NCBI GenBank assembly: GCA_964016885.1
Contig: OZ024743.1
Location: 73,346,001-73,410,000, forward strand
DNA from: Eledone cirrhosa
Taxonomy: Eukaryota
Length of the DNA: 64,000 bases
Direction: 5' to 3'
Under the pieces are notes generated by a model that did no database searches, was not told where the DNA came from, and worked only from the letters and a program-made list of their open reading frames with translations. The position numbers and the translations under genes are program-made. Below are positions 4,543 to 57,560 of the stretch, piece by piece. The first letter of the stretch is position 1. Every line of letters begins with the position of its first letter.

Positions 4543-5045
<503 letters not shown>

Positions 5046-5091
5046 ATATATATATATATATATACATACAGTATATATATGGACCGCATAA

Positions 5092-32088: not shown

Positions 32089-32095
<7 letters not shown>

Positions 32096-34417
32096 CAAAT
32101 AACGAAACGAAATTAAATTTCGTTTCGTTTGTAACTCACTTTTGTATGACTGACGCTTAAACAATTAAGTTAAAAATGTACATCCACATATGTATACTGA
32201 AATACTAGTATGCATATGAATACACACACGTATACATATGTAGATGTACCGAGTTTTTCACTGGTCACTTTACTGTGAGTGTCCAGCTATTCTGTATGTA
32301 AACACACAGACAAACCGGTTTTTAGAGTCATACTGGTTTTTGAGGAAACACCTTTCCTCTATTCTCCAGAAAGCCAGACAAGGAATATTGAACTAGTTTC
32401 GATGTTGTTACATCTCATCAGCAATATTTACCTATCTTCCGGCCTCTCTAGAGAATCGTAAAAGCACATATCGTTATATGCTTTTTCTATGAAAATTAGT
32501 AGTGGGCAGACTAATTTGCATAGAGCGTGAGTGCGTACCGGTTCAACGGAGACGATAAAAACAAATAACGAAACGAAATTAAATTTCGTTTCGTTTGTAA
32601 CTCACTTTTGTATGACTGACGCTTAAACAATTAAGTTAAAAATGTACATCCACATATGTATACTGAAATACTAGTATGCATATGAATACACACACGTATA
32701 CATATGTAGATGTACCGAGTTTTTCACTGGTCACTTTACTGTGAGTGTCCAGCTATTCTGTATGTAAACACACAGACAAACCGGTTTTTAGAGTCATACT
32801 GGTTTTTGAGGAAACACCTTTCCTCTATTCTCCAGAAAGCCAGACAAGGAATATTGAACTAGTTTCGATGTTGTTACATCTCATCAGCAATATTTACCTA
32901 TCTTCCGGCCTCTCTAGAGAATCGTAAAAGCACATATCGTTATATGCTTTTTCTATGAAAATTAGTAGTGGGCAGACTAATTTGCATAGAGCGTGAGTGC
33001 GTACCGGTTCAACTTAATTGTTTAAGCGTCAGTCATACAAAAGTGAGTTACAAACGAAACGAAATTTAATTTCGTTTCGTTATTTGTTTTTATCGTCTCC
33101 GTTGAACCGGTACGCACTCACGCTCTATGCAAATTAGTCTGCCCACTACTAATTTTCATAGAAAAAGCATATAACGATATGTGCTTTTACGATTCTCTAG
33201 AGAGGCCGGAAGATAGGTAAATATTGCTGATGAGATGTAACAACATCGAAACTAGTTCAATATTCCTTGTCTGGCTTTCTGGAGAATAGAGGAAAGGTGT
33301 TTCCTCAAAAACCAGTATGACTCTAAAAACCGGTTTGTCTGTGTGTTTACATACAGAATAGCTGGACACTCACAGTAAAGTGACCAGTGAAAAACTCGGT
33401 ACATCTACATATGTATACGTGTGTGTATTCATATGCATACTAGTATTTCAGTATACATATGTGGATGTACATTTTTAACTTAATTGTTTAAGCGTCAGTC
33501 ATACAAAAGTGAGTTACAAACGAAACGAAATTTAATTTCGTTTCGTTATTTGTTTTTATCGTCTCCGTTGAACCGGTACGCACTCACGCTCTATGCAAAT
33601 TAGTCTGCCCACTACTAATTTTCATAGAAAAAGCATATAACGATATGTGCTTTTACGATTCTCTAGAGAGGCCGGAAGATAGGTAAATATTGCTGATGAG
33701 ATGTAACAACATCGAAACTAGTTCAATATTCCTTGTCTGGCTTTCTGGAGAATAGAGGAAAGGTGTTTCCTCAAAAACCAGTATGACTCTAAAAACCGGT
33801 TTGTCTGTGTGTTTACATACAGAATAGCTGGACACTCACAGTAAAGTGACCAGTGAAAAACTCGGTACATCTACATATGTATACGTGTGTGTATTCATAT
33901 GCATACTAGTATTTCAGTATACATATGTGGATGTACATTTTTAACTTAATTGTTTAAGCGTCAGTCATACAAAAGTGAGTTACAAACGAAACGAAATTTA
34001 ATTTCGTTTCGTTATTTGTTTTTATCGTCTCCGTTGAACCGGTACGCACTCACGCTCTATGCAAATTAGTCTGCCCACTACTAATTTTCATAGAAAAAGC
34101 ATATAACGATATGTGCTTTTACGATTCTCTAGAGAGGCCGGAAGATAGGTAAATATTGCTGATGAGATGTAACAACATCGAAACTAGTTCAATATTCCTT
34201 GTCTGGCTTTCTGGAGAATAGAGGAAAGGTGTTTCCTCAAAAACCAGTATGACTCTAAAAACCGGTTTGTCTGTGTGTTTACATACAGAATAGCTGGACA
34301 CTCACAGTAAAGTGACCAGTGAAAAACTCGGTACATCTACATATGTATACGTGTGTGTATTCATATGCATACTAGTATTTCAGTATACATATGTGGATGT
34401 ACATTTTTAACTTAATT

Positions 34418-34422
<5 letters not shown>
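32089..34422. mobile_element. Retrozyme-like tandem array A: 466-bp unit, ~2 units (HHR on -) plus ~3 inverted units (HHR on +)
   Basis: 466-bp periodicity with no differences seen; inversion junction at 33011-33013 (aac microhomology); (TA)n on both sides; one HHR per unit. Confidence 0.88.
33220..33264 (+). ncRNA. Type I HHR of array A (also 33686-33730 and 34152-34196 on +; 32384-32428 and 32850-32894 on -)
   Basis: aatattg-CTGATGA-gatgt aaca acatc-GAAA-ctag-TT-caatatt; palindromic minimal stem III ACTAGT. Confidence 0.9.
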
Positions 34423-37319: not shown

Positions 37320-37893
37320 GGCGATGAATTAGTTTTGCGAGGTTTTTTATATGAAATTGTGTGTCGAAACAGATATTGTTATATTTGGGGAGGGTCATAT
37401 TTGCGTAATATTGCCAGAATTAATAACAGAACACACTCACTGTTTGGTTGGTTTTCGCTTCTCGCTGTCTTTTATATATATATATCTGCGATCTAACTTA
37501 CTCGGTCCTCAATGTTGCCATTGACTGACCGGCGGTCAAAAATAATACAGATACAATATAGACAAACACATATATATATAGTTTACATAAATCTTTCGTT
37601 GCACATCTGCAACATCGTCAGTGGTGTTATATTCATTGTTCCTCCTGTTGTGTTGTATGTCTACGCCATTTTTTTTGTTCAGTCTGTCTATATATTTATT
37701 TATTTATTTGCTTGTTTGTTTATCTTATTTTATTTTGTCTTCTTTGCGCATGCGTTTGCGTGTGTGTATAGTGTTATGTGTGATGTGTGACTAGTGTGTA
37801 TAGTGTTGTGTCTGCTGGGTGACTAGTGTGTGTTTATGTGCTTGTGTATGTATTTATTTATCTTATTTTATTTAATTTAATTTACTTATTTAT

Positions 37894-40800
37894 TTATACT
37901 TCTCTTAGGTCAGTGTTGTTTGTTTGGGTGTTGTTGTTGTTCCACTCATTCTTTCTGTTTAGCTTTGGTCTTCTAATTTCTATTTCACTGGCCTCTCTGA
38001 TTTGCCTATCTGCTGGGTCATTCCTATGTTTAGATATTATTCTAATTTCTATGTTGTCTATGTTACCGTCATGATGTTGTCTAGCATGTTCGTATAGTAC
38101 TGACCCGTTTTTTCGTCCTTTTAGTTCCCCCCAGTGTTGGTCTATCCTTTCACCTATGCTACGAGCTGTCTCACCTATGTATGTTGTTGTCGTGTTTCTG
38201 CAAGTACCCTCTGTACATCTTATGCTATAGACTACGTTTCTAGTTTTACAGTTTATCCGGGGGTTCACCTTACATATGATACATTTCCTATTGGTACAGT
38301 GGGTTTTCTTAAAAGGGTAGGTTTTGCTGATCAGGGATTTTATGGTGGTTCCTGGCTTTTCTACCACCTTTATTTTTAAGTGGGTCTTTCTCAGGGCCTT
38401 TCTACACTGGTTAGCTAATTTCCCTCCAGGGGTGGCGTCCACAAACATGACACTCTGATATCTCTGGTTGTCGTACCATGATGTGGCCTTCCCTATCTTA
38501 TGTCTAGCCCTATCTAAGCTATTCCATGATTTGCTCCTGTATAGTGGGCAAATTCCTTTCATGTCCAGTTCTATGAGGGTCTTATACTTTTCTATGGCTC
38601 CTTCGTATACTCTGACTCTGTCTCTTTGGTTGTAGCCAGAGAACTGCATGCAGTTGATGAAGTGTTGGATGTGTCCTTCCATTTCTGTTGGGTCGCACAT
38701 GCTGGACACATTCTTCATCACTCGTACCAAATCTGCGATCAGAATATTAAACTTAGCACTACTGGACATTGCTGAGTTTTTGAGTATCAGGTATTTGGAG
38801 GCCATGGGTTTCGCATAGTGTGAGTGGAGAATTTGGGCTCTCTCGTCTATAGTGTTAATCCAGAGTTCTGTGTCTAATACAGGTAGTCTATTGTTAGGGT
38901 GTTTGGAAGGGAAGTCTATAGTTACAGTTATACTCTGGTGTATGGAATTAGCTATCTGCTGGATGCTTTCCATCGTGCTACGTTCTAAATCAAACTTGCT
39001 AGTGCTCTCTAGTGGGGGTGTTCTTATAACTATATTGATATCGTCTACATAACGAGAGTACATGATGAGGTCTATGGAGCTTTCATTAAGGAGATCTTTA
39101 AGTCTCCTTTCCCACCATACCATGAAAAGGTTGGCAACATCGCCAGCTATGCTGACGCCGATGGCTGCTCCCTCATTTTGGGTGTAGATTTTCTCATTGA
39201 ACTTAAATATGTGGCTCTTTAGGGTAGTTTTGATACTAGCCCCTATTGCATGTGCGACCATTTTTCTTACCTGATCAGTGTTTTGGGGGGTCCGTATAGC
39301 TTTGGTCCACCCAATCCACCTTCCTATGGGAGTCTTTTTAGCCATTGAGGTTATGGTGGGGGGTCTACCTCTTATAGGTCTACTAGGGCAGAAACATCTA
39401 AGGTCATGGCTGTCTAGGTAGTCAGTGTCGTAGGTAAGTCTAAGTAGGAGGCCCAGTTCGTCTGTGTCGACGTCGCAGAACTCCACCTCACTCTCAATGA
39501 TCATCTCCACACATCTTTTCACAGCAAAATCAATGTTAATGGATGGGTACAGTGACACCACATCCATGCTGCCTATTATGCAGTTGGATAGGCTCCTGTT
39601 TTTGTTGCACTCACTGATTCTGCTGAGGAGGTCCTCTGTACTTTCACATACATCTGGGGACATCTTGATTATGGGGCGTATAACCATTGAGAGGAAGTAG
39701 GAGATCCTGTAGTTGCTAGCTATATTAGCTCCGCATACAGGTCTTGTTGGTGGTCCTGTTGTCGGGTCGTCGACTGTCTTGTGGTCTTTGCGGAGCCCAT
39801 ACAAGGGTGGTATGCCATTGTTAGACGCCTGGAAGTTGTTGGCAGTGCGTCTGCTTGGCTTTAGGATGTCAGTCCACATCATCATGTGAGCGTTGAGGAT
39901 TTTTTCTCTCCCATCGTGTGTTAGTTGTGCAACTTCGCTCGTGTTGGTGATGTGGGGTTGCATTGCCTCGATGTAGTTCGGCATGCTATCTATTGACATC
40001 CTACCAGACTTATCTGTGGGTAGACACACTACCTCACCATCCCTTGTGCGCTGCTTGAGGCTAACCAAGCCTTCTACAGGTTTTATCCCAAGTTGTTGGG
40101 CCTCTGGTCTGCTCTGTCTCATAGTGTACCTGTCTACTACTTGTCTAATCTTATTTCTAGCTATGGTGAACTGTGCCTCCGTCTCGTCATCTATTTGTTG
40201 TGGTATGCAAACTCTTTTATTAAAGGGTAACCTCGTAGGATAGATATTACCCATCTTATATGTTTTGTCAGCTGGGTTGAAAAATAGTTTCTCTAAGGGG
40301 TTGTCGTTATTTCTATCGTCATAGTTGTGTGTGTTGCTATTATTATTATCATGGTGGTTGTTGTTGTTTCTATCATTAGCATTAATATTATTATTGTTAT
40401 GATTGCTAGATGTATTGTTGTTTACTTCACCGTTATTGTTGTTGTTGTTACTGCTATTTCTACCATTGTGGTTGTTACTATTATTATGTTTCTTGTTTTT
40501 GTTGATGTTGCTACATGTACTATTTCCATTATTACCACTGGGGTTATTGTTGTTGTTGTTGTTCGTATTGTTACCGTTATTACTACTGTGGTCACTGTTG
40601 CTGTGTCTGTGGTTAACGTTTCTATTATTATTATTATTGTGGTTGTTGTTGTTCTGTCTATCGCTAGTATTATTACCATTATCACTATTTCTCACTTTCC
40701 TGCCATTGTTATGGTTATGGCTGTTATTTCTATACCCAGAGTTATTGTTTATATTACTACTACCGTTATTATTGTTGTTGTTGTTTACCTTTGCATTCCA

Positions 40801-41163
40801 ACGTATTTTTGTGAAACACTTTTCCAGCTCCGTTTTGCATTCCATAGTGTTAATCTTTTTGTAGATGGCAAATTTTGGTGGTAACTTTAGGATTTGTTGT
40901 TCTTGTTCACTGATTAAAGTGTTCCCATAGATATTTACTGTGTGGTCATTGGTAAATTCTTCCGGTAGTTTTACATCACTCATACGGATGTTGTCGATGT
41001 TATCTGGGTATTTTTGAGAATATTCGATTTTCCTTTCTTGTAGTTTTTTCTTATTCATCCATTCTAATTTCTTCTTGAAATGCCTACAGCATTCGTTTTG
41101 AGCATATTTCGTTTCGCGTCGGATGACGCTCATGAAGTCATCTCTCTCGTTTGCTGTGATGAG
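37894..41163 (-). CDS. PLE polyprotein (RT + C-terminal GIY-YIG), 5'-truncated, uninterrupted
   Basis: PTDKSG, LYGLRKDHK, GSMDVVSLYPSI, QNEGAAIG, RYVDD, LPVLD; C..C..C linker; NVVYSIRC..C..YIGETARS..ER..QH; LNRKNEW. Confidence 0.93.
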   Translation of the reverse strand, partial: LITANERDDFMSVIRRETKYAQNECCRHFKKKLEWMNKKKLQERKIEYSQKYPDNIDNIRMSDVKLPEEFTNDHTVNIYGNTLISEQEQQILKLPPKFAIYKKINTMECKTELEKCFTKIRWNAKVNNNNNNNGSSNINNNSGYRNNSHNHNNGRKVRNSDNGNNTSDRQNNNNHNNNNNRNVNHRHSNSDHSSNNGNNTNNNNNNNPSGNNGNSTCSNINKNKKHNNSNNHNGRNSSNNNNNNGEVNNNTSSNHNNNNINANDRNNNNHHDNNNSNTHNYDDRNNDNPLEKLFFNPADKTYKMGNIYPTRLPFNKRVCIPQQIDDETEAQFTIARNKIRQVVDRYTMRQSRPEAQQLGIKPVEGLVSLKQRTRDGEVVCLPTDKSGRMSIDSMPNYIEAMQPHITNTSEVAQLTHDGREKILNAHMMMWTDILKPSRRTANNFQASNNGIPPLYGLRKDHKTVDDPTTGPPTRPVCGANIASNYRISYFLSMVIRPIIKMSPDVCESTEDLLSRISECNKNRSLSNCIIGSMDVVSLYPSINIDFAVKRCVEMIIESEVEFCDVDTDELGLLLRLTYDTDYLDSHDLRCFCPSRPIRGRPPTITSMAKKTPIGRWIGWTKAIRTPQNTDQVRKMVAHAIGASIKTTLKSHIFKFNEKIYTQNEGAAIGVSIAGDVANLFMVWWERRLKDLLNESSIDLIMYSRYVDDINIVIRTPPLESTSKFDLERSTMESIQQIANSIHQSITVTIDFPSKHPNNRLPVLDTELWINTIDERAQILHSHYAKPMASKYLILKNSAMSSSAKFNILIADLVRVMKNVSSMCDPTEMEGHIQHFINCMQFSGYNQRDRVRVYEGAIEKYKTLIELDMKGICPLYRSKSWNSLDRARHKIGKATSWYDNQRYQSVMFVDATPGGKLANQCRKALRKTHLKIKVVEKPGTTIKSLISKTYPFKKTHCTNRKCIICKVNPRINCKTRNVVYSIRCTEGTCRNTTTTYIGETARSIGERIDQHWGELKGRKNGSVLYEHARQHHDGNIDNIEIRIISKHRNDPADRQIREASEIEIRRPKLNRKNEWNNNNTQTNNTDLREV

Positions 41164-41164
41164 A

Positions 41165-44092
41165 AAGTGTTTCACAAAAATACGTTGGAATGCAAAGGTA
41201 AACAACAACAACAATAATAACGGTAGTAGTAATATAAACAATAACTCTGGGTATAGAAATAACAGCCATAACCATAACAATGGCAGGAAAGTGAGAAATA
41301 GTGATAATGGTAATAATACTAGCGATAGACAGAACAACAACAACCACAATAATAATAATAATAGAAACGTTAACCACAGACACAGCAACAGTGACCACAG
41401 TAGTAATAACGGTAACAATACGAACAACAACAACAACAATAACCACAGTGGTAATAATGGAAATAGTACATGTAGCAACATCAACAAAAACAAGAAACAT
41501 AATAATAGTAACAACCACAATGGTAGAAATAGCAGTAACAACAACAACAATAACGGTGAAGTAAACAACAATACATCTAGCAATCATAACAATAATAATA
41601 TTAATGCTAATGATAGAAACAACAACAACCACCATGATAATAATAATAGCAACACACACAACTATGACGATAGAAATAATGACAACCCCTTAGAGAAACT
41701 ATTTTTCAACCCAGCTGACAAAACATATAAGATGGGTAATATCTATCCTACGAGGTTACCCTTTAATAAAAGAGTTTGCATACCACAACAAATAGATGAC
41801 GAGACGGAGGCACAGTTCACCATAGCTAGAAATAAGATTAGACAAGTAGTAGACAGGTACACTATGAGACAGAGCAGACCAGAGGCCCAACAACTTGGGA
41901 TAAAACCTGTAGAAGGCTTGGTTAGCCTCAAGCAGCGCACAAGGGATGGTGAGGTAGTGTGTCTACCCACAGATAAGTCTGGTAGGATGTCAATAGATAG
42001 CATGCCGAACTACATCGAGGCAATGCAACCCCACATCACCAACACGAGCGAAGTTGCACAACTAACACACGATGGGAGAGAAAAAATCCTCAACGCTCAC
42101 ATGATGATGTGGACTGACATCCTAAAGCCAAGCAGACGCACTGCCAACAACTTCCAGGCGTCTAACAATGGCATACCACCCTTGTATGGGCTCCGCAAAG
42201 ACCACAAGACAGTCGACGACCCGACAACAGGACCACCAACAAGACCTGTATGCGGAGCTAATATAGCTAGCAACTACAGGATCTCCTACTTCCTCTCAAT
42301 GGTTATACGCCCCATAATCAAGATGTCCCCAGATGTATGTGAAAGTACAGAGGACCTCCTCAGCAGAATCAGTGAGTGCAACAAAAACAGGAGCCTATCC
42401 AACTGCATAATAGGCAGCATGGATGTGGTGTCACTGTACCCATCCATTAACATTGATTTTGCTGTGAAAAGATGTGTGGAGATGATCATTGAGAGTGAGG
42501 TGGAGTTCTGCGACGTCGACACAGACGAACTGGGCCTCCTACTTAGACTTACCTACGACACTGACTACCTAGACAGCCATGACCTTAGATGTTTCTGCCC
42601 TAGTAGACCTATAAGAGGTAGACCCCCCACCATAACCTCAATGGCTAAAAAGACTCCCATAGGAAGGTGGATTGGGTGGACCAAAGCTATACGGACCCCC
42701 CAAAACACTGATCAGGTAAGAAAAATGGTCGCACATGCAATAGGGGCTAGTATCAAAACTACCCTAAAGGGCCACATATTTAAGTTCAATGAGAAAATCT
42801 ACACCCAAAATGAGGGAGCAGCCATCGGCGTCAGCATAGCTGGCGATGTTGCCAACCTTTTCATGGTATGGTGGGAAAGGAGACTTAAAGATCTCCTTAA
42901 TGAAAGCTCCATAGACCTCATCATGTACTCTCGTTATGTAGACGATATCAATATAGTTATAAGAACACCCCCACTAGAGAGCACTAACAAGTTTGATTTA
43001 GAACGTAGCACGATGGAAAGCATCCAGCAGATAGCTAATTCCATACACCAGAGTATAACTGTAACTATAGACTTCCCTTCCAAACACCCTAACAATAGAC
43101 TACCTGTATTAGACACAGAACTCTGGATTAACACTATAGTCGAGAGAGCCCAAATTCTCCACTCACACTATGCTAAACCCATGGCCTCCAAATACCTGAT
43201 ACTCAAAAACTCAGCAATGTCCAGTAGTGCTAAGTTTAATATTCTGATCGCAGATTTGGTACGAGTGATGAAGAATGTGTCCAGCATGTGCGACCCAACA
43301 GAAATGGAAGGACACATCCAACACTTCATCAACCGCATGCAGTTCTCTGGCTACAACCAAAGAGACAGAGTCAGAGTATACGAAGGAGCCATGGAAAAGT
43401 ATAAGACCCTCATAGAACTGGACATGAAAGGAATTTGCCCACTATACAGGAGCAAATCATGGAATAGCTTAGATAGGGCTAGACATAAGATAGGGAAGGC
43501 CACATCATGGTACGACAACCAGAGATATCAGAGTGTCATGTTTGTGGACGCCACCCCTGGAGGGAAATTAGCTAACCAGTGTAGAAAGGCCCTGAGAAAG
43601 ACCCACTTAAAAATAAAGGTGGTAGAAAAGCCAGGAACCACCATAAAATCCCTGATCAGCAAAACCTACCCTTTTAAGAAAACCCACTGTACCAATAGGA
43701 AATGTATCATATGTAAGGTGAACCCCCGGATAAACTGTAAAACTAGTAACGTAGTCTATAGCATAAGATGTACAGAGGGTACTTGCAGAAACACGACAAC
43801 AACATACATAGGTGAGACAGCTCGTAGCATAGGTGAAAGGATAGACCAACACTGGGGGGAACTAAAAGGACGAAAAAACGGGTCAGTACTATACGAACAT
43901 GCTAGACAACATCATGACGGTAACATAGACAACATAGAAATTAGAATAATATCTAAACATAGGAATGACCCAGCAGATAGGCAAATCAGAGAGGCCAGTG
44001 AAATAGAAATTAGAAGACCAAAGCTAAACAGAAAGAATGAGTGGAACAACAACAACACCCAAACAAACAACACTGACCTAAGAGAAGTATAA
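41165..44092 (+). CDS. PLE polyprotein, second (inverted) copy, 5'-truncated, uninterrupted
   Basis: Same motifs; 7 amino-acid differences from the left copy by manual comparison. Confidence 0.93.
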   Translation, partial: KCFTKIRWNAKVNNNNNNNGSSNINNNSGYRNNSHNHNNGRKVRNSDNGNNTSDRQNNNNHNNNNNRNVNHRHSNSDHSSNNGNNTNNNNNNNHSGNNGNSTCSNINKNKKHNNSNNHNGRNSSNNNNNNGEVNNNTSSNHNNNNINANDRNNNNHHDNNNSNTHNYDDRNNDNPLEKLFFNPADKTYKMGNIYPTRLPFNKRVCIPQQIDDETEAQFTIARNKIRQVVDRYTMRQSRPEAQQLGIKPVEGLVSLKQRTRDGEVVCLPTDKSGRMSIDSMPNYIEAMQPHITNTSEVAQLTHDGREKILNAHMMMWTDILKPSRRTANNFQASNNGIPPLYGLRKDHKTVDDPTTGPPTRPVCGANIASNYRISYFLSMVIRPIIKMSPDVCESTEDLLSRISECNKNRSLSNCIIGSMDVVSLYPSINIDFAVKRCVEMIIESEVEFCDVDTDELGLLLRLTYDTDYLDSHDLRCFCPSRPIRGRPPTITSMAKKTPIGRWIGWTKAIRTPQNTDQVRKMVAHAIGASIKTTLKGHIFKFNEKIYTQNEGAAIGVSIAGDVANLFMVWWERRLKDLLNESSIDLIMYSRYVDDINIVIRTPPLESTNKFDLERSTMESIQQIANSIHQSITVTIDFPSKHPNNRLPVLDTELWINTIVERAQILHSHYAKPMASKYLILKNSAMSSSAKFNILIADLVRVMKNVSSMCDPTEMEGHIQHFINRMQFSGYNQRDRVRVYEGAMEKYKTLIELDMKGICPLYRSKSWNSLDRARHKIGKATSWYDNQRYQSVMFVDATPGGKLANQCRKALRKTHLKIKVVEKPGTTIKSLISKTYPFKKTHCTNRKCIICKVNPRINCKTSNVVYSIRCTEGTCRNTTTTYIGETARSIGERIDQHWGELKGRKNGSVLYEHARQHHDGNIDNIEIRIISKHRNDPADRQIREASEIEIRRPKLNRKNEWNNNNTQTNNTDLREV

Positions 44093-44362
44093 ATAAATAA
44101 GTAAATTAAATTAAATAAAATAAGATAAATAAATACATACACAAGCACATAAACACACACTAGTCACCCAGCAGACACAACACTATACACACTAGTCACA
44201 CATCACACATAACACTATACACACACGCAAACGCATGCGCAAAGAAGACAAAATAAAATAAGATAAACAAACAAGCAAATAAATAAATAAATATATAGAC
44301 AGACTGAACAAAAAAAATGGCGTAGACATACAACACAACAGGAGGAACAATGAATATAACAC

Positions 44363-44400
44363 CACTGACGATGTTGCAGATGTGCAACGAAAGATTTATG
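44363..44400 (+). ncRNA. HHR-like motif in the PLE 3' region (mirror copy 37586-37623 on -)
   Basis: ca-CTGACGA-t-gttgca gatg tgcaac-GAAA-gatt-TA-tg; stem I weak, but layout matches the motif at 3933-3977. Confidence 0.45.
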
Positions 44401-44605
44401 TAAACTATATATATATGTGTTTGTCTATATTGTATCTGTATTATTTTTGACCGCCGGTCAGTCAATGGCAACATTGAGGACCGAGTAAGTTAGATCGCAG
44501 ATATATATATATAAAAGACAGCGAGAAGCGAAAACCAACCAAACAGTGAGTGTGTTCTGTTATTAATTCTGGCAATATTACGCAAATATGACCCTCCCCA
44601 AATAT

Positions 44606-44725
<120 letters not shown>

Positions 44726-45487: not shown

Positions 45488-45561
<74 letters not shown>

Positions 45562-45566
<5 letters not shown>

Positions 45567-47720
45567 GTAGGTACACAACAGTTAGTTCACCATACCGAGA
45601 ACAATTGTTTCACCTTCGCAGATCTTCAGCTCGGGATGTGTATGGTTATAGGAACAGGAAGGACAACCGTACGAACGCGCATGCGCAGAAACTCGGTCAC
45701 TTCACACAGGCAATACTAGACTGCGAAAGCTAACCCTATGGCCTACCACGACATTAATACAGAAGCCAAGGAACTCGCCACCGACCTTAAGGTAGATAAG
45801 AAGCTACAATCTCTAGCTAAGCGGGAGGCGTTCCTCTCCCTGAAAGATCACAAAGTAGACTTTACTTCTAACCCCACATGTAGACTAATAAACCCGGCAC
45901 GCACAGATATGGGACTAGTCGGTAAGGCCATACTTAGAAACATAGTTAAGACCATTAGGACCAAGTCCAACCTGCCCCAGTGGGAGAACAGCGACTCCGT
46001 CATTAAGTGGTTTAACTCCTTAAAATCCAAAAAAGCGAAGTTCACAGTTTGACATTGTCGATTTTTACCCGTCGATCTCAGAGACCCTGTTAAACAAAGC
46101 GTTGGACTTCACTACCACTTATACCACCGTCGATGGTTTAGACAGGGAAATGATCGCTCACTGCCGGAAAACCCTCCTCTTCAACGACGGAGTAGCCTGG
46201 GCAAAGAAGTCTACATATTCAGACCTGTTCGACGTCTCCATGGGATCGTTTGACAGTGCTGACGTATGCGAATTGGTTGGCCTTTTTATCTTAGAAATAT
46301 TACGTGTTAGATTCCCGGACTTCCAAACGGGAATATACCGTGACGATGGACTGACTTTATCGAGCCATAAAAGTGGTCACGACCTCGACCGGTTTAAAAA
46401 AGACTTAGCTTCTACTTTCAATGAGTTAGACCTTAGGATAACAGTAGCCACCAACCTCTCTAGCGTAGATTTCTTAGACATTAATTTAGACCATCGCACA
46501 CACACCCACAGACCCTTCCATAAGCTAAACGAGAAACTTAATTACATTCACAAGGACTCATGCCACCCTCCCACTGCTTTTAGAAACTTCGTTAAGAATA
46601 TCAGTACTAGAATCTCAAACCTCTCCTCTAATAAGGCTATCTTTGACAGGGCGGCACCCTACTATAACACGGCGTTGGCTAACAGCGGCTTCTCACAACC
46701 TATCAGCTACTCTCCCACTAGCAACAACACCATTAAGAAAAGTAAGTGCATCAATAGACAAACTATCTGGTTCTCTCCTCCCTTCTCACTCAACGTTAAA
46801 ACCAATGTAGGAAAAAAATTTCTAGCCCTCTTAGATAGACACTTCCCCATAGGTCATAAATACCGCTCCATCTTTAACCGACACAAAGTTAAACTACGAT
46901 ACTCCTGCATGAAGGCCCACATCACCAGCAGCCCTAGGAGCATCACCCCACTAGGGTGCTCTTGCCGTAAGCCTGAAGCTCGCCCCCTTCAACAGCAATG
47001 CAACACACCAGCTGTAATCTATGAAGCTGTGGTCACTTCCAACCGACCAAAGGAACCACAGTAGGTCAAATCCTATGTGGGCATGGTGGAGGGCCGATTC
47101 AAGGAGCGTTTCCTGAACCACCAGTCTACCTTCAGATACTCGGACAGACGTTCATCCACGAAACTCGCGAGTCACGTATGGTCCCTCAAGGACTCAAGTA
47201 TAGGCTACTCCATTCAATGGAAAGCCATCACTAAGTCCAAGCCATACGCAAGGGGAAATCCGACGTGTGGCTTATGTATTGACGAACGAATAACTATCCT
47301 AAAGAGATTACGCAATAGTGATTGCCTAAACACGAGAAGTGAATTTTTCACACGTTGTCCACACGTCACCAAATATCTATTGCATAACTACAAGGCTCCG
47401 GACTGATTCTTTGTAATTTTAATTGTTTTATTTTATTTTCAACCTAAAAACTTTCCGGAGTTTCGCATTTATCTCCCTTACACCTCCCGCACGCAGTCTA
47501 GTATTGCCTGTGTGAAGTGACTGAGTTTCTGCGCATGCTCGTTCGTACGGTTGTCCTTCCTGTTCCTATAACCATACACATCCCGAGCTGAAGATCCGCA
47601 ATGGTGAAACAATTGTTCTCGGTATGGTGAACTAACTGTTGTGTAACCACTTCTACCTAACTCGTCCCTTGGACTGAGTGCTCTACCACTACGGATATTA
47701 CCGTCCAGTGTTCCACCACT
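45562..47720 (+). mobile_element. 5'-truncated PLE (second family) with an inverted upstream pLTR (45562-45725); frameshifted RT + GIY-YIG
   Basis: LKDHK..CRLINP, DIVDFYPSI, FDVSMGSFD, YRDDGL, DFLD, WFSPPFS, VIY..YVG, CGLC, CPH; 45562-45725 is the reverse complement of 47492-47655; TA flanks. Confidence 0.92.
47583..47622 (+). ncRNA. Type I HHR in pLTR (mirror copy 45595-45634 on -)
   Basis: ccgag-CTGAAGA-tccgcaatggt-GAAA-caattg-TT-ctcgg. Confidence 0.8.
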
Positions 47721-48520: not shown

Positions 48521-48598
48521 TATATATACAGAGAGAGAGAGAGAGGGAAATGCACATATATATGTAAATATATACATAGAAATATATATATATATATA

Positions 48599-49018
48599 CG
48601 TTATTCCGGGTTGAATCGGAGGTAACCACAGCAGAGTATAAAAGTTTTAATATAGATGAGATTCTACAGGACTAGAACTGTTTCATTCTTTAGAAATCAT
48701 CAGGAATCTGGGTATCAAAAAATAAATATGGTATTTATAGGTCTCTTCAGGTGGTAGGAGAGGGTGGGCAGTGGGATGGGTAGAGGTCATTGGTTGATAG
48801 AAAAGGGAATTCATTAAAAGTTAATTCTTTAAAGAATTAGCTTTTAATGAATTCCCTTTTCTATCAACCAATGACCTCTACCCATCCCACTGCCCACCCT
48901 CTCCTACCACCTGAAGAGACCTATAAATACCATATTTATTTTTTGATACCCAGATTCCTGATGATTTCTAAAGAATGAAACAGTTCTAGTCCTGTAGAAT
49001 CTCATCTATATTAAAACT
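48599..49018. mobile_element. Mini palindromic PLE-like terminus in (TA)n
   Basis: 48643-48830 mirrors 48831-49018 almost perfectly; ~44-nt extra tail on the left; CTGATGA-tttctaaagaat-GAAA-cagt-TC at 48958-48986; decayed relative at 45355-45455. Confidence 0.75.
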
Positions 49019-49106: not shown

Positions 49107-49444
49107 ATATACATATTTACTTATACACAATCACACGCATACAGACACACACATAAGGGGGAGTTATATAGAAAGCACGTTATACCACGACTGCATCCTT
49201 ATGACGTCCGTTGTCCACGTAATGGTAATTCGTGAAGGTTTAGGTATTGTGGTGTTCGGAGTGTTAATGATTTGATTGGTTTTGTTTGTTTTTTCTAATG
49301 TAGAACGTGTCTGTTGGATGGGTTTGCTTGTGTGTTTATGGATTAAGTTATCTTGAATTTCTCGACAGTGTGTGTCTGGTGTAGATTTTAGATAATCTTT
49401 GTGTTTATTTCAAGGCAATTATCATTCATTATTTCATATATATA

Positions 49445-49834
49445 TGGGGGGTGGATTGGCAGTATCGGTAGAGGGTGGAACGCCGGGCTTTCCAGCATAG
49501 TTACGTCCCTTTACGATCTGAGTTCAAATCCCGCCGAGGTTGACTTTGCCTTTCATCCTTACGGGGTCGATATAATAAAGTACCAGTAATGCACTGGATA
49601 ATTGCTGGCCTTGTGCCTAGAGTAGAAACAATTATTTCATATATATATGGGGGGTGGATTGGCAGTATCGGTAGAGGGTGGAACGCCGTGCTTTGCAGCA
49701 CAGTTACGTCCCTTTCCGGACTGAGTTCAATCCCGCCGAGGTTAAATTTGCCTTTCATCCTTACGGGGTCGATAAATAAAGTACCAGTAATTAACTAGGA
49801 TAATTGCTGGTCTTGTGCTAAAAGTAGAAACAAT

Positions 49835-49836
<2 letters not shown>
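49445..49836 (+). mobile_element. Tandem SINE dimer
   Basis: Two consecutive SINE copies, each bounded by attatttcatatatat. Confidence 0.8.
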
Positions 49837-49880
<44 letters not shown>

Positions 49881-49992: not shown

Positions 49993-49994
<2 letters not shown>

Positions 49995-50194
49995 AGGGAG
50001 TGTGGTAAAGAACCAGGTAGACCAGAGTACTCGATACTTTGGGTAGTAGAGTGGGTAATAGGAAAAGGTTCAAGACCCCGACTGCAGAGCTCAACCCGTT
50101 TCGACAGCTATTTCTGGACTACTGGACTACTTCAGGAGTCCAGAAATAGCCGTCGAAACGGCTTGAGCTCTGCTGCCGTGGTCCTGAACCTTTT

Positions 50195-50198
<4 letters not shown>
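49993..50198. mobile_element. Mini inverted PLE-like terminus (relatives at 31612-31732, 36295-36432 and 61030-61670)
   Basis: 50059-50121 mirrors 50137-50198; ~66-nt extra tail; gtc-GAAA-cggc-TT-gagctc half-HHR. Confidence 0.65.
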
Positions 50199-50245
<47 letters not shown>

Positions 50246-50250
<5 letters not shown>

Positions 50251-50374
50251 TTGAAAAAAATGAAAACGAAATTTCATTTCTCACTCTTAGTATGGCACTT
50301 ACTTAAATGTAAGTATGTATGTATACGTACATACATATATGTATACAGACGTACAGTAGCATGCATATATATAC

Positions 50375-50425
<51 letters not shown>

Positions 50426-50888
50426 CATATACATATATACATACAGGTACACATACATATATGCACGCATCAGTTTAGCGGACGTTTATTACAACGCCGC
50501 TTTGTTCGTTTGTTTGTCAACAAACCGAACAGCCTGAATTTATGCCATACGGTGTTAAGGCAACCGCGTCACCTTTTTGTTCAACACTGACACAGGAACG
50601 ATGTACTAGTTTCAAGCTTGTTAGCTATCATCAGCACCGTTTACCCATCTGCCAGATAGTTGAACGTTCGAAAGTATATACTTTCCTTATGAAAATTAAC
50701 GGCTGAGCAGCCTAATTTGCATATTGAGTGAGTTAAATCGGTCAGGCATACCGAAAACGATAAGTTGAAAAAAATGAAAACGAAATTTCATTTCTCACTC
50801 TTAGTATGGCACTTACTTAAATGTAAGTATGTATGTATACGTACATACATATATGTATACAGACGTACAGTAGCATGCATATATATAC

Positions 50889-50939
<51 letters not shown>

Positions 50940-51402
50940 CATATACATATATACATACAGGTACACATACATATATGCACGCATCAGTTTAGCGGACGTT
51001 TATTACAACGCCGCTTTGTTCGTTTGTTTGTCAACAAACCGAACAGCCTGAATTTATGCCATACGGTGTTAAGGCAACCGCGTCACCTTTTTGTTCAACA
51101 CTGACACAGGAACGATGTACTAGTTTCAAGCTTGTTAGCTATCATCAGCACCGTTTACCCATCTGCCAGATAGTTGAACGTTCGAAAGTATATACTTTCC
51201 TTATGAAAATTAACGGCTGAGCAGCCTAATTTGCATATTGAGTGAGTTAAATCGGTCAGGCATACCGAAAACGATAAGTTGAAAAAAATGAAAACGAAAT
51301 TTCATTTCTCACTCTTAGTATGGCACTTACTTAAATGTAAGTATGTATGTATACGTACATACATATATGTATACAGACGTACAGTAGCATGCATATATAT
51401 AC

Positions 51403-51453
<51 letters not shown>

Positions 51454-51916
51454 CATATACATATATACATACAGGTACACATACATATATGCACGCATCA
51501 GTTTAGCGGACGTTTATTACAACGCCGCTTTGTTCGTTTGTTTGTCAACAAACCGAACAGCCTGAATTTATGCCATACGGTGTTAAGGCAACCGCGTCAC
51601 CTTTTTGTTCAACACTGACACAGGAACGATGTACTAGTTTCAAGCTTGTTAGCTATCATCAGCACCGTTTACCCATCTGCCAGATAGTTGAACGTTCGAA
51701 AGTATATACTTTCCTTATGAAAATTAACGGCTGAGCAGCCTAATTTGCATATTGAGTGAGTTAAATCGGTCAGGCATACCGAAAACGATAAGTTGAAAAA
51801 AATGAAAACGAAATTTCATTTCTCACTCTTAGTATGGCACTTACTTAAATGTAAGTATGTATGTATACGTACATACATATATGTATACAGACGTACAGTA
51901 GCATGCATATATATAC

Positions 51917-51967
<51 letters not shown>

Positions 51968-52430
51968 CATATACATATATACATACAGGTACACATACAT
52001 ATATGCACGCATCAGTTTAGCGGACGTTTATTACAACGCCGCTTTGTTCGTTTGTTTGTCAACAAACCGAACAGCCTGAATTTATGCCATACGGTGTTAA
52101 GGCAACCGCGTCACCTTTTTGTTCAACACTGACACAGGAACGATGTACTAGTTTCAAGCTTGTTAGCTATCATCAGCACCGTTTACCCATCTGCCAGATA
52201 GTTGAACGTTCGAAAGTATATACTTTCCTTATGAAAATTAACGGCTGAGCAGCCTAATTTGCATATTGAGTGAGTTAAATCGGTCAGGCATACCGAAAAC
52301 GATAAGTTGAAAAAAATGAAAACGAAATTTCATTTCTCACTCTTAGTATGGCACTTACTTAAATGTAAGTATGTATGTATACGTACATACATATATGTAT
52401 ACAGACGTACAGTAGCATGCATATATATAC

Positions 52431-52481
<51 letters not shown>

Positions 52482-52944
52482 CATATACATATATACATAC
52501 AGGTACACATACATATATGCACGCATCAGTTTAGCGGACGTTTATTACAACGCCGCTTTGTTCGTTTGTTTGTCAACAAACCGAACAGCCTGAATTTATG
52601 CCATACGGTGTTAAGGCAACCGCGTCACCTTTTTGTTCAACACTGACACAGGAACGATGTACTAGTTTCAAGCTTGTTAGCTATCATCAGCACCGTTTAC
52701 CCATCTGCCAGATAGTTGAACGTTCGAAAGTATATACTTTCCTTATGAAAATTAACGGCTGAGCAGCCTAATTTGCATATTGAGTGAGTTAAATCGGTCA
52801 GGCATACCGAAAACGATAAGTTGAAAAAAATGAAAACGAAATTTCATTTCTCACTCTTAGTATGGCACTTACTTAAATGTAAGTATGTATGTATACGTAC
52901 ATACATATATGTATACAGACGTACAGTAGCATGCATATATATAC

Positions 52945-52995
<51 letters not shown>

Positions 52996-53458
52996 CATAT
53001 ACATATATACATACAGGTACACATACATATATGCACGCATCAGTTTAGCGGACGTTTATTACAACGCCGCTTTGTTCGTTTGTTTGTCAACAAACCGAAC
53101 AGCCTGAATTTATGCCATACGGTGTTAAGGCAACCGCGTCACCTTTTTGTTCAACACTGACACAGGAACGATGTACTAGTTTCAAGCTTGTTAGCTATCA
53201 TCAGCACCGTTTACCCATCTGCCAGATAGTTGAACGTTCGAAAGTATATACTTTCCTTATGAAAATTAACGGCTGAGCAGCCTAATTTGCATATTGAGTG
53301 AGTTAAATCGGTCAGGCATACCGAAAACGATAAGTTGAAAAAAATGAAAACGAAATTTCATTTCTCACTCTTAGTATGGCACTTACTTAAATGTAAGTAT
53401 GTATGTATACGTACATACATATATGTATACAGACGTACAGTAGCATGCATATATATAC

Positions 53459-53509
<51 letters not shown>

Positions 53510-53972
53510 CATATACATATATACATACAGGTACACATACATATATGCACGCATCAGTTTAGCGGACGTTTATTACAACGCCGCTTTGTTCGTTTGTTTG
53601 TCAACAAACCGAACAGCCTGAATTTATGCCATACGGTGTTAAGGCAACCGCGTCACCTTTTTGTTCAACACTGACACAGGAACGATGTACTAGTTTCAAG
53701 CTTGTTAGCTATCATCAGCACCGTTTACCCATCTGCCAGATAGTTGAACGTTCGAAAGTATATACTTTCCTTATGAAAATTAACGGCTGAGCAGCCTAAT
53801 TTGCATATTGAGTGAGTTAAATCGGTCAGGCATACCGAAAACGATAAGTTGAAAAAAATGAAAACGAAATTTCATTTCTCACTCTTAGTATGGCACTTAC
53901 TTAAATGTAAGTATGTATGTATACGTACATACATATATGTATACAGACGTACAGTAGCATGCATATATATAC

Positions 53973-54023
<51 letters not shown>

Positions 54024-54486
54024 CATATACATATATACATACAGGTACACATACATATATGCACGCATCAGTTTAGCGGACGTTTATTACAACGCCGCTT
54101 TGTTCGTTTGTTTGTCAACAAACCGAACAGCCTGAATTTATGCCATACGGTGTTAAGGCAACCGCGTCACCTTTTTGTTCAACACTGACACAGGAACGAT
54201 GTACTAGTTTCAAGCTTGTTAGCTATCATCAGCACCGTTTACCCATCTGCCAGATAGTTGAACGTTCGAAAGTATATACTTTCCTTATGAAAATTAACGG
54301 CTGAGCAGCCTAATTTGCATATTGAGTGAGTTAAATCGGTCAGGCATACCGAAAACGATAAGTTGAAAAAAATGAAAACGAAATTTCATTTCTCACTCTT
54401 AGTATGGCACTTACTTAAATGTAAGTATGTATGTATACGTACATACATATATGTATACAGACGTACAGTAGCATGCATATATATAC

Positions 54487-54537
<51 letters not shown>

Positions 54538-55000
54538 CATATACATATATACATACAGGTACACATACATATATGCACGCATCAGTTTAGCGGACGTTTA
54601 TTACAACGCCGCTTTGTTCGTTTGTTTGTCAACAAACCGAACAGCCTGAATTTATGCCATACGGTGTTAAGGCAACCGCGTCACCTTTTTGTTCAACACT
54701 GACACAGGAACGATGTACTAGTTTCAAGCTTGTTAGCTATCATCAGCACCGTTTACCCATCTGCCAGATAGTTGAACGTTCGAAAGTATATACTTTCCTT
54801 ATGAAAATTAACGGCTGAGCAGCCTAATTTGCATATTGAGTGAGTTAAATCGGTCAGGCATACCGAAAACGATAAGTTGAAAAAAATGAAAACGAAATTT
54901 CATTTCTCACTCTTAGTATGGCACTTACTTAAATGTAAGTATGTATGTATACGTACATACATATATGTATACAGACGTACAGTAGCATGCATATATATAC

Positions 55001-55051
<51 letters not shown>

Positions 55052-55514
55052 CATATACATATATACATACAGGTACACATACATATATGCACGCATCAGT
55101 TTAGCGGACGTTTATTACAACGCCGCTTTGTTCGTTTGTTTGTCAACAAACCGAACAGCCTGAATTTATGCCATACGGTGTTAAGGCAACCGCGTCACCT
55201 TTTTGTTCAACACTGACACAGGAACGATGTACTAGTTTCAAGCTTGTTAGCTATCATCAGCACCGTTTACCCATCTGCCAGATAGTTGAACGTTCGAAAG
55301 TATATACTTTCCTTATGAAAATTAACGGCTGAGCAGCCTAATTTGCATATTGAGTGAGTTAAATCGGTCAGGCATACCGAAAACGATAAGTTGAAAAAAA
55401 TGAAAACGAAATTTCATTTCTCACTCTTAGTATGGCACTTACTTAAATGTAAGTATGTATGTATACGTACATACATATATGTATACAGACGTACAGTAGC
55501 ATGCATATATATAC

Positions 55515-55565
<51 letters not shown>

Positions 55566-56361
55566 CATATACATATATACATACAGGTACACATACATAT
55601 ATGCACGCATCAGTTTAGCGGACGTTTATTACAACGCCGCTTTGTTCGTTTGTTTGTCAACAAACCGAACAGCCTGAATTTATGCCATACGGTGTTAAGG
55701 CAACCGCGTCACCTTTTTGTTCAAAACTGACACAGGAACGATGTACTAGTTTCAAGCTTGTTAGCTATCATCAGCACCGTTTACCCATCTGCCAGATAGT
55801 TGAACGTTCGAAAGTATATACTTTCCTTATGAAAATTAACGGCTGAGCAGCCTAATTTGCATATTGAGTGAGTTAAATCGGTCAGGCATACCGAAAACGA
55901 TAAGTTGAAAAAAATGAAAACGAAATTTCATTTCTCACTCTTAGTATGGCACTTACTTAAATGTAAGTATGTATGTGCCATACTAAGAGTGAGAAATGAA
56001 ATTTCGTTTTCATTTTTTTCAACTTATCGTTTTCGGTATGCCTGACCGATTTAACTCACTCAATATGCAAATTAGGCTGCTCAGCCGTTAATTTTCATAA
56101 GGAAAGTATATACTTTCGAACGTTCAACTATCTGGCAGATGGGTAAACGGTGCTGATGATAGCTAACAAGCTTGAAACTAGTACATCGTTCCTGTGTCAG
56201 TGTTGAACAAAAAGGTGACGCGGTTGCCTTAACACCGTATGGCATAAATTCAGGCTGTTCGGTTTGTTGACAAACAAACGAACAAAGCGGCGTTGTAATA
56301 AACGTCCGCTAAACTGATGCGTGCATATATGTATGTGTACCTGTATGTATATATGTATATG

Positions 56362-56412
<51 letters not shown>

Positions 56413-56875
56413 GTATATATATGCATGCTACTGTACGTCTGTATACATATATGTATGTACGTATACATACATACTTACATTTAAGTAAGTGCCATACTAA
56501 GAGTGAGAAATGAAATTTCGTTTTCATTTTTTTCAACTTATCGTTTTCGGTATGCCTGACCGATTTAACTCACTCAATATGCAAATTAGGCTGCTCAGCC
56601 GTTAATTTTCATAAGGAAAGTATATACTTTCGAACGTTCAACTATCTGGCAGATGGGTAAACGGTGCTGATGATAGCTAACAAGCTTGAAACTAGTACAT
56701 CGTTCCTGTGTCAGTGTTGAACAAAAAGGTGACGCGGTTGCCTTAACACCGTATGGCATAAATTCAGGCTGTTCGGTTTGTTGACAAACAAACGAACAAA
56801 GCGGCGTTGTAATAAACGTCCGCTAAACTGATGCGTGCATATATGTATGTGTACCTGTATGTATATATGTATATG

Positions 56876-56926
<51 letters not shown>

Positions 56927-56994
56927 GTATATATATGCATGCTACTGTACGTCTGTATACATATATGTATGTACGTATACATACATACTTACAT
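50246..56994. mobile_element. Retrozyme-like tandem array B: 514-bp unit, ~11.15 units (HHR on -) plus ~2 inverted units (HHR on +)
   Basis: 514-bp periodicity, also visible in the ORF track; inversion at 55975-55976 (gt microhomology); (TA)n on both sides. Confidence 0.9.
56146..56190 (+). ncRNA. Type I HHR of array B (also 56660-56704 on +; 50597-50641 + 514k, k=0..10, on -)
   Basis: aacggtg-CTGATGA-t agct aaca agct t-GAAA-ctag-TA-catcgtt. Confidence 0.85.
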
Positions 56995-57016
56995 ATATAT
57001 ATATATATATATATAT

Positions 57017-57560
57017 AAAGAAAAAGAGATGAAATCGAAAATGCAACTGGAGTCTTATTTTTTTTTAAATATATATATTTATGTGGTTCCTTTACCGGTT
57101 TCGCAGTTCTTCTGCTTTTCAAAAGTAGAGTTGAGATGGAGGGTCTGTGGTTTTTCTCACATCTGGTTGGTCTCTGAATGTTACTTGTTTTGTATGGAAA
57201 AAGTGGCTCGAAATGCCAGGTTTTTCGAGAAGTAATTTGATTGGTTGGTCAATAATTATAATAAATTTCGCGCCAGTTCGCGTTACAATAGTTCTTCAAA
57301 TAAGAGGGGGGGGGGGGTTTCACAGGTTGTTTTTTCATATATGAGTGTTTGAATTTCTTTTTACTTGAAAAAAGAGGGCTCACGAAGGCTTTGTTGGGGT
57401 TGGTTATAAATGAAATTATGGCTGTCACGTGAACAAGTTTTCATTAAATTTTCGCGCCCTTATTTGGAAATCCATTCTGTAGCCTTTTTAGAGAATTTTA
57501 TGATAAGTAAAAGATAATGGTCAAGAGAAATGGGATGGGAGAATTGTTCTGGTTCAGTGA
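57017..57560 (-). mobile_element. Copy of the 31770 repeat family with a variant HHR core at 57089-57126
   Basis: High similarity to 31832-32042. Confidence 0.6.

Follow-up and report, generated by a model that had tools for sequence, protein, structure and literature searches.

A very young head-to-head hammerhead retrozyme array in Eledone cirrhosa, with Penelope-like insertion ends and a probably circular RNA template

How does a non-coding unit of 514 nt come to stand about thirteen times, almost letter for letter, in two opposed runs within a TA microsatellite? This question is raised by the array at positions 50246–56994 of a 64,000-nt stretch of the Eledone cirrhosa genome (assembly GCA_964016885.1, contig OZ024743.1, positions 73,346,001–73,410,000 of the forward strand; hereafter the window). 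Judged from its DNA sequence, the array is by all testable features a real and very young insertion of a non-LTR retrozyme (one without long terminal repeats), i.e., a hammerhead-bearing repeat. We read it as the outcome of one recent event in which this non-autonomous element was mobilised by the machinery of a Penelope-like element (PLE), most likely from one circular RNA, and give this reading a probability of about 65%.

The spread of animal retrozymes, the enzyme that moves them and the use of circular templates by PLEs have been under question since 2014–2020, and a 2026 preprint calls the mechanism unresolved while leaning to unequal crossover (10.64898/2026.07.22.740005). The element class is known and the circle model has been published as a hypothesis; it is the evidence at the level of single insertions that appears to be new. 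The genome offers a very young and very abundant family in which the priming sites are exact to the base and arrays are marked by alleles, together with one candidate dimer-circle product; these features define an in vitro test.

Build and identity of the array

Positions within the unit are given in RNA sense as U1–U514, U being the reverse complement of 50246–50759 (Table 1). The units (GC content about 34–35%) follow one another head-to-tail without terminal repeats in arm A, and arm B is an exact reverse complement of the arm A unit. The RNA 3′ end of arm A is its leftmost base, U514 (site A), the last TAT being common to the unit and the TA tract, while that of arm B lies at U453–456 (site B), 58–61 nt short of site A. 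The array is non-coding, with no open reading frame (ORF) of 100 aa wholly within it, and the reverse transcriptase (RT)/GIY-YIG ORF of an autonomous PLE is absent from it.

Table 1. Features of the window and of two long arrays elsewhere in the genome (window positions unless a contig is named)
Feature	Position	Strand	Remarks
Arm A	50246..55976	-	5,731 nt = 11 x 514 + 77 (11.15 head-to-tail units); 5′ end U438
Arm B	55975..56994	+	1,020 nt = 2 x 514 - 8 (1.98 units); 5′ end U462
Head-to-head junction of arms A/B	55975..55976	.	2-nt overlap (microhomology)
Sole substitution inside array	55725	+	in arm A unit 11; arm A units 1-10 identical
Terminal tail U454-514	50246..50306	-	left end only; AU-rich hairpin, then U7 run
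Type I hammerhead motif (one of 13)	56146..56190	+	predicted cut after GUA at 56183 (after U156)
Internal TA/CA microsatellite tract (one of 13)	56323..56473	+	one long hairpin in predicted circle
Allele U194C	56221	+	family majority T; fixed in 13/13 units, both arms
U6-like promoter candidate (one of 13)	56064..56113	+	boxes U37-48, U61-72, U80-86; putative function
Left target tract (TA)26	50197..50248	.	
Right target tract (TA)n	56995..57017	.	about (TA)10
Sister retrozyme insertion, 466-bp unit	32089..34422	.	2 + 3 units; 5 hammerheads, no mismatches
PLE	37320..44610	.	(TA)n insert of two head-to-head arms; one end bears a 53-nt tail
Four further PLE-like inserts	4620-5070, 45560-47720, 48598-49018, 49994-50197		two-arm, in (TA)n, tail at one end
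31-unit arm, 466-bp family (L211-L240)	C1:5736822-5753369		block duplications, PLE-type ends kept
69-unit arm, 466-bp family (L241-L244)	C1:81846600-81886599		block duplications, PLE-type ends kept

An earlier, sequence-only reading of the window had described about 13 near-identical non-coding units with a single substitution, a TA/CA tract of invariant length and one type I hammerhead with an ACUAGU stem III in each unit, the whole being inverted once within (TA)n. Each of these points was recovered. The two arms hold 11.15 and 1.98 copies that differ only at 55725, and the TA/CA tract, which serves as a barcode for the locus, is identical in all 13 copies (164 nt between anchors). A scan for the hammerhead core yielded 13 motifs, one per unit, with stems I–III in 13/13; since 11 lie on the minus and two on the plus strand, both RNA 3′ ends point outward, as had been claimed, and TA tracts flank both sides.

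The motif comprises a 7-bp stem I, CUGAUGA, a 4-bp stem II, GAA and the palindromic stem III ACUAGU, with a U-U mismatch closing stem II at its base (which is atypical) and a predicted fold of –17.6 kcal/mol with the core open or –19.7 kcal/mol when free. No match was found anywhere in the window at the Rfam gathering score, the motif reaching 18.5 bits (E 0.044) against Hammerhead_HH9, for which the cut-off is 52. The motif of a sister family with a 466-bp unit, also present in the window, scores 36.5 bits (E 7e-8). This sister family, with 958 exact genome matches to its own core, a canonical stem II and a GUU cut triplet, keeps the core and the stem I/II pairing with changed letters (i.e., covariation), making the hammerhead reading of the 514-bp unit solid, with cleavage as a prediction. 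Moreover, a search of the 3.0-Gb genome gives 10,333 exact matches for the 37-nt core of the 514-bp family and none for its reversed control, so that this family is not a product of chance.

The 514-bp family is thus dispersed and multi-copy, with sampled arms of 0.1 to 15 units. Our sample of 127 loci was drawn from the window, from the best hits at the DNA level, from the first 100 core matches (of 10,333) and, for the end-A junction, from the first 70 of its 389 matches. It lies mostly on contigs C1–C2 and consists for more than half of loci chosen by their end A; counts for the hammerhead-picked subset are given separately. Conservation along the unit, being skewed by the choice of loci on the hammerhead, was not used as evidence.

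Metazoan non-LTR retrozymes are described as non-coding tandem repeats of low GC content that bear a type I hammerhead in each unit and occur in thousands of dispersed copies (PMC7229834, PMC7761336). The 514-bp family resembles those of PMC7229834 in its non-coding units, hammerheads, dispersed copies, self-paired predicted circle and co-occurring PLEs. It differs from them in unit size (514 nt vs. an RNA of about 170–400 nt) and in being known from DNA alone, whereas circles have been shown for the metazoan retrozymes of that paper.

Two fixed ends and the footprint of PLE machinery

Arm ends were scored in two intervals, U505–514 for site A and U446–464 for site B, which together make up 5.6% of the unit positions. 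In the hammerhead-picked subset, 62 of 69 arms ended at A or B, and 18 of 23 head-to-head junctions joined an A arm to a B arm. Across all 127 loci, the 67 head-to-head junctions divided into 52 A+B, no A+A and two B+B, with 11 having one end at neither site and two lying at the edge of the examined sequence. No tail-to-tail junction was present among the matches listed, nearly all listed arm ends adjoined TA repeats, and 46 of 47 A arms extended past site B. Where arms met with zero insertion, they overlapped by at least 2 nt in 25 of 43 junctions, compared with 19% for random joins. Insertions of this family therefore have two fixed 3′ ends, one per arm and about 60 nt apart.

These counts bear on what had been proposed for the array. 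Retrozyme identity, a single recent PLE-type insertion in (TA)n and two priming events are upheld by the core count, the end sites and the junction types, and the variable unit number, inversion and TA flanks anticipated for other loci were seen across the 127. The single fixed 3′ end of the earlier proposal, on the other hand, gives way to two, A and B. The second priming event does occur, not as an accident but as the rule, and its start is likewise fixed, lying about 60 nt upstream.

The asymmetry of the junctions also bears on whether the unit number or the inversion might be an artefact of assembly or library preparation (collapse, fold-back chimera or polishing). Near-perfect unit identity is what such an artefact would leave behind, but fold-back artefacts are symmetric, whereas the junctions here are asymmetric and follow the A+B rule. 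Moreover, the assembly resolves unit-level variants elsewhere, and the minority allele U194C was kept in 13/13 units, indicating that reads from the rest of the family did not overwrite the array. A weaker point is that one short-read contig (run X1, possibly from the source sample) contains an opposite-strand joint of the family with a 4-nt overlap. We regard an artefact as hardly credible.

Hallmarks of PLEs include a second copy that is 5′-truncated and inverted, a tail on one of the two ends and a (TA)n target (PMC8557442). A PLE studied in vitro begins reverse transcription internally, at a pair of adjacent sites that delimit the tail; both target strands are extended, and dimerisation of the enzyme is predicted (PMC11167929). 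Since the A+B ends, inverted truncated copy, tail and (TA)n targets of the 514-bp family match these hallmarks, we take mobilisation by PLE machinery to be very likely, the enzyme itself being the presumed part. The rule of one arm per start site fits a dimeric enzyme. Within the window, all seven two-arm inserts that were compared have a tail of roughly 45–85 nt (by eye) at one end only, and the one-tail, two-arm build is common to the 514-bp family, the 466-bp family and an RT-GIY-YIG element. Speaking against a PLE partner, the unit and the PLE ends in the window share no homology below E 0.02 outside simple sequence, and no homology to a PLE pseudo-long terminal repeat (pLTR) was found in the window.

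Several published systems come close to this geometry. Endonuclease-containing (EN+) PLEs share the inverted 5′-truncated copy, the one-end tail, the (TA)n setting and the two adjacent RT starts (PMC8557442, PMC11167929); compared with them, the 514-bp unit lacks an ORF, has a tail of about 60 nt instead of 30–40 nt and was copied for up to 15 turns per arm in our sample, and the one-arm-per-site rule is quantified here. Chlamys elements that are non-autonomous and arranged head-to-tail, such as MRC1, are also noted (PMC8557442). A preprint by Li, Clavereau and Pollet (10.64898/2026.07.22.740005) arrives at the same partner, with unit sizes of 51–972 bp that include 514; its case is built on co-occurrence, pLTR homology and phylogeny, mostly in vertebrates, whereas the 514-bp unit lacks pLTR homology in the window, and its main text makes no mention of tail, junction or promoter. 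The relevant passages of PMC7229834 likewise describe no (TA)n insertion that consists of two head-to-head arms and has two fixed ends. In the literature covered (supplements and subscription papers being outside its scope), no account of retrozymes reports insertion-level PLE signatures, a rule of one arm per site, arms marked by alleles or an array with a dimer period.

A formal parallel outside PLEs is the twin priming of LINE-1. There, two target strands prime on one RNA and the resulting inversion is joined by microhomology, with a variable second site and non-overlapping segments. The 514-bp family differs in that both priming sites are fixed and that nearly every A arm continues beyond site B.

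As for the target, PLE fragments or further family copies were found nested inside the internal TA tract of a unit at L040, L128 and L148, from which it follows that the element brings its own target.

Circular, linear or later-enlarged template

The 5′ ends of the arms are scattered along the unit. The predicted cut site was passed 213 times by 108 arms; three stops fell within U150–164, where 3.0 would be expected. The main template was therefore not cleaved linear RNA. The ends of the window array (U514 and U453) also lie off the predicted cut. The sequence-only reading had excluded a cleaved monomer on the latter ground, and this part is borne out; it does not establish a circle, however, since the same PLE twin-site priming on an uncleaved linear multimeric donor transcript, with arm length as ordinary 5′ truncation, accounts equally for the ends, the inversion and the lack of stops at the cut.

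What separates the two templates is the distribution of alleles. U194C is carried by all 13 window units but is absent from the remaining 366 sampled copies of the unit that include this site. Genome-wide, the allele pattern has 44 exact copies, of which 13 are in the window, and there is no other run at unit spacing; the remaining copies (24 of 31 examined, with 7 on contig C14 outside the set) differ from the window unit at five or more positions. The assembly therefore contains no linear 11-unit donor, and copying such a transcript could by itself neither fix a new allele in all units nor lengthen an array.

A second case is L119 (C1:125825800-125833799), where a unit X (about 544 nt) and a unit Y (about 500 nt), which differ in a substitution, an A run and the structure of the tract, alternate strictly in both arms (7 + 7 units). 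A dimeric circle turned 3.5 times would give exactly such an alternation, making L119 a candidate dimer-circle product. The Y allele has nine genome copies, six of them at L119, and no second alternating array exists in the assembly, which is thus without a tandem donor for either the window allele or this alternation. Two donor candidates for L119 were rejected: L182 consists of two Y-like units without X, and L183 is unrelated.

The same contrast emerges from the arrays of at least five units. In 15 of 20, only single-unit variants were found, even in older arrays with 6–10 such variants, which fits a common birth of all units, whereas old linear donors are heterogeneous.

Both arms of a locus stem from the same source sequence. 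In the 49 pairs that could be scored (of 71), the arms of one locus differed by a median of 0.8%, as opposed to 2.8% between loci, and in 26 of these pairs no other arm was closer, with a few outliers in the set. With the window left out of the within-locus counts, the tract was identical in 88 of 299 cross-arm pairs, as opposed to 343 of 74,787 pairs between loci. General fold-back copying of one arm from the other was rejected: the lengths of the two arms show no correlation (rho 0.03 over 47 pairs), and while the A arm is longer by more than one unit in 11 of 47 loci, the B arm is so in 8 of 47. There is a mild excess of arm pairs that stop within 45 nt of each other (8 vs. 3.7, p 0.02, one of four tests).

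Several observations weigh against a circular template, or against the evidence just given for it. Conversion between adjacent inverted arms could inflate their identity, and a single assembly may lack a donor that exists. At L119, both arms start at U455–457 and are 7.0 and 7.1 units long, so fold-back copying of one from the other is conceivable and would cut that evidence by half. Shared variants among subsets of units are found in 5 of the 20 arrays, four of them without strict period, and the L126 array carries the same shared-variant block in both arms, which requires a heterogeneous multimeric template or later exchange and so counts in favour of a linear multimer. A180G at L208, considered as a second private allele, was rejected, having 62 copies with other runs of five and three units. 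Stops are in excess at U1–60 (20 vs. 10.1, p 0.004 for one interval out of six tested) and, slightly, near the putative transcription start at U100–115 (6 vs. 3.1, p 0.09), the latter as a linear transcript would predict. With the U-U pair at the base of stem II and the Rfam score below cut-off, the predicted ribozyme may cut slowly and leave linear multimers. In line with this, an anole PLE prefers unprocessed RNA as its main substrate in vitro (PMC11167929), and one of nine Xenopus retrozyme dimers was cleaved in vitro according to the preprint (10.64898/2026.07.22.740005). Long potential donors do exist in the sister family. Nevertheless, given the missing tandem donors, the fixed allele and the star-like arrays, we consider a linear multimeric template unlikely, though it must be reckoned with, and retain circular RNA as the template of the window insertion at the probability stated at the outset, a figure that the allele evidence is responsible for raising. 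The rolling-circle step is accordingly favoured, not proven.

Alternatively, a short PLE-type insertion of about 2 + 2 units could have grown later, through slippage or unequal exchange, until it held 11 units, and unequal crossover or local amplification is what the preprint favours for retrozyme arrays (10.64898/2026.07.22.740005). Growth of this kind is a point to be held against copying at full length, for it does occur: the 31- and 69-unit arms of the sister family show many shared variants and repeated non-periodic blocks (in the 69-unit array no strict higher-order period was found, the best lag match being 0.24), demonstrating DNA-level expansion in this genome, and L153 has local two-unit repeats. 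These two arrays represent satellite-like growth from a PLE-type insertion. Large satellite blocks had been named beforehand as grounds for abandoning an insertion origin; blocks with duplications are indeed present, but they have kept PLE-type ends. For the window, however, expansion would have added nine units while leaving the slippage-prone tract unchanged and only one substitution, and shared variants, which are numerous in enlarged arrays (22 columns in the 69-unit arm), are missing from the window array. Furthermore, L036, L083, L120 and L183 are older arrays with 6–10 single-unit variants, none shared, pointing to birth at full length. Later enlargement is in our view a poor prospect for the window array, and less plausible than the linear multimer.

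With regard to satellite-like arrays, L203 (C14:25077900-25084500) holds an old and diverged array of the 514-bp family with a repeat period of about 10 units, and the presence on C14 of one allele in nine spaced copies is suggestive of a higher-order satellite of larger extent.

Promoter candidate, proposed course of events and neighbouring inserts

The unit contains a 12-nt box with the octamer ATGCAAAT at U37–48, followed by a conserved T-rich box (U61–72) and a TATA-like box (U80–86), all of which are kept in both the 514- and the 466-bp families. The U6 genes of this genome have a TATA box near –30, and the 12-nt box (with at most one mismatch) occurs at –77 to –79 in six of eight examined U6 loci, representing three distinct upstream sequences, the other two loci being interrupted. 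It was not found within 150 nt of five U2 genes (five of six U2 loci obtained). The unit is therefore a candidate for carrying an internal U6-like promoter, with a distance from box to TATA of about 43 nt instead of the 47–48 nt of the U6 genes. The vertebrate U6 octamer element lies far upstream of the TATA box, unlike in the U6 genes here; at L168–L173, the octamer-containing box was observed at about –77, near the TATA box. A point against this promoter is the U7 run just before site A, since a transcript of RNA polymerase III (Pol III) would need to read through it. Among six sequencing runs listed, none was an RNA source, which has no bearing on whether the unit is expressed.

According to PMC7761336, retrozymes seem to be without promoters and without a motif pointing to an autonomous partner, in contrast to the promoter candidate and PLE end signature of the 514-bp family. 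Hammerhead satellites with internal promoters have been reported, on the other hand, from newt (satellite 2, with a small nuclear RNA (snRNA)-type Pol II promoter) and schistosomes (Pol III), and the 514-bp family is like them in combining hammerhead repeats with a putative internal promoter (PMC2220036); unlike the newt promoter, the box described here matches the genome's U6 and not its U2 upstream regions.

A 202-bp repeat resembling a short interspersed element was seen as a dimer at window positions 49428–49850, and also interrupts the upstream region of two U6 copies (L174 and L175, in the U6 cluster on C19).

Taken together, the following course of events can be proposed. Units would be transcribed into multimers, perhaps from the internal U6-like promoter, after which the hammerheads would cut and, by analogy with other retrozymes, a host ligase would close 514-nt monomer circles and sometimes dimers. 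A PLE endonuclease would then nick both (TA)n strands, and two RTs would prime internally at A and B, about 60 nt apart around the hairpin; the two fixed ends with one arm each are observed, the PLE enzyme is presumed. Each RT would proceed independently through the ribozyme site, here for 11.15 and 1.98 turns, and stop almost at random, a pattern seen in the arms for which the circle is the presumed template. The cDNA ends would join via 1–6 nt of microhomology, as the junctions show, and fill-in would complete a head-to-head array with 3′ ends outward. Later, the internal tract would slip, and some arrays would be enlarged by DNA-level duplication, as in the two long arrays.

Tandem cDNA made from circular RNA by a PLE RT has been proposed for metazoan retrozymes (PMC7229834, PMC7761336), and a circular template for PLEs was proposed in 2014 (PMC4209133). 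Going further, we lean slightly towards viewing these loci as direct genomic records of germline rolling-circle reverse transcription, in which a pair of PLE RTs primes twice on one ribozyme-made circle, monomeric or dimeric and equipped with its own U6-like promoter, and proceeds with strand displacement for up to about 15 turns (7 kb). If so, a natural RT writes multi-turn circular RNA concatemers into chromosomes and seeds satellites, and each insertion of more than one unit would be a self-sufficient source. The tandem and inverted structures of PLEs might then arise likewise, to judge from the like geometry of the autonomous element in the window.

The array has several neighbours of similar build. 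The arms of the sister insertion (32089-33013, minus, 925 nt; 33011-34422, plus, 1,412 nt) overlap by 3 nt, with a 69-nt tail at one end and TA flanks. The PLE at 37320-44610 has open frames in both arms, with the RT motif YVDD, a CxxxxCxxC motif, C-terminal GIY-YIG-type motifs and a long Asn-rich N-terminal stretch; its ORF matches Pfam RVT_1 below cut-off (E 1.6e-4) and gives weak RT hits only in PDB. It is young, its arms differing at 21 of 3,475 nt and 99–100% identical protein pieces occurring elsewhere (including L039 and L084), and it serves as an object of comparison, not shown to be the partner of the retrozyme. Three of the four further PLE-like inserts hold hammerhead-like motifs in the scan, and that at 45560-47720 contains a broken RT-GIY-YIG frame.

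A third, more diverged relative of the family (73–80% identity) with its own A end was observed at L036, L038, L073, L092, L104 and other loci, often beside family members. Finally, window positions 14084–17818 (minus strand) contain broken frames that by eye resemble a non-LTR retrotransposon, with ORF1-like and RT-like pieces.

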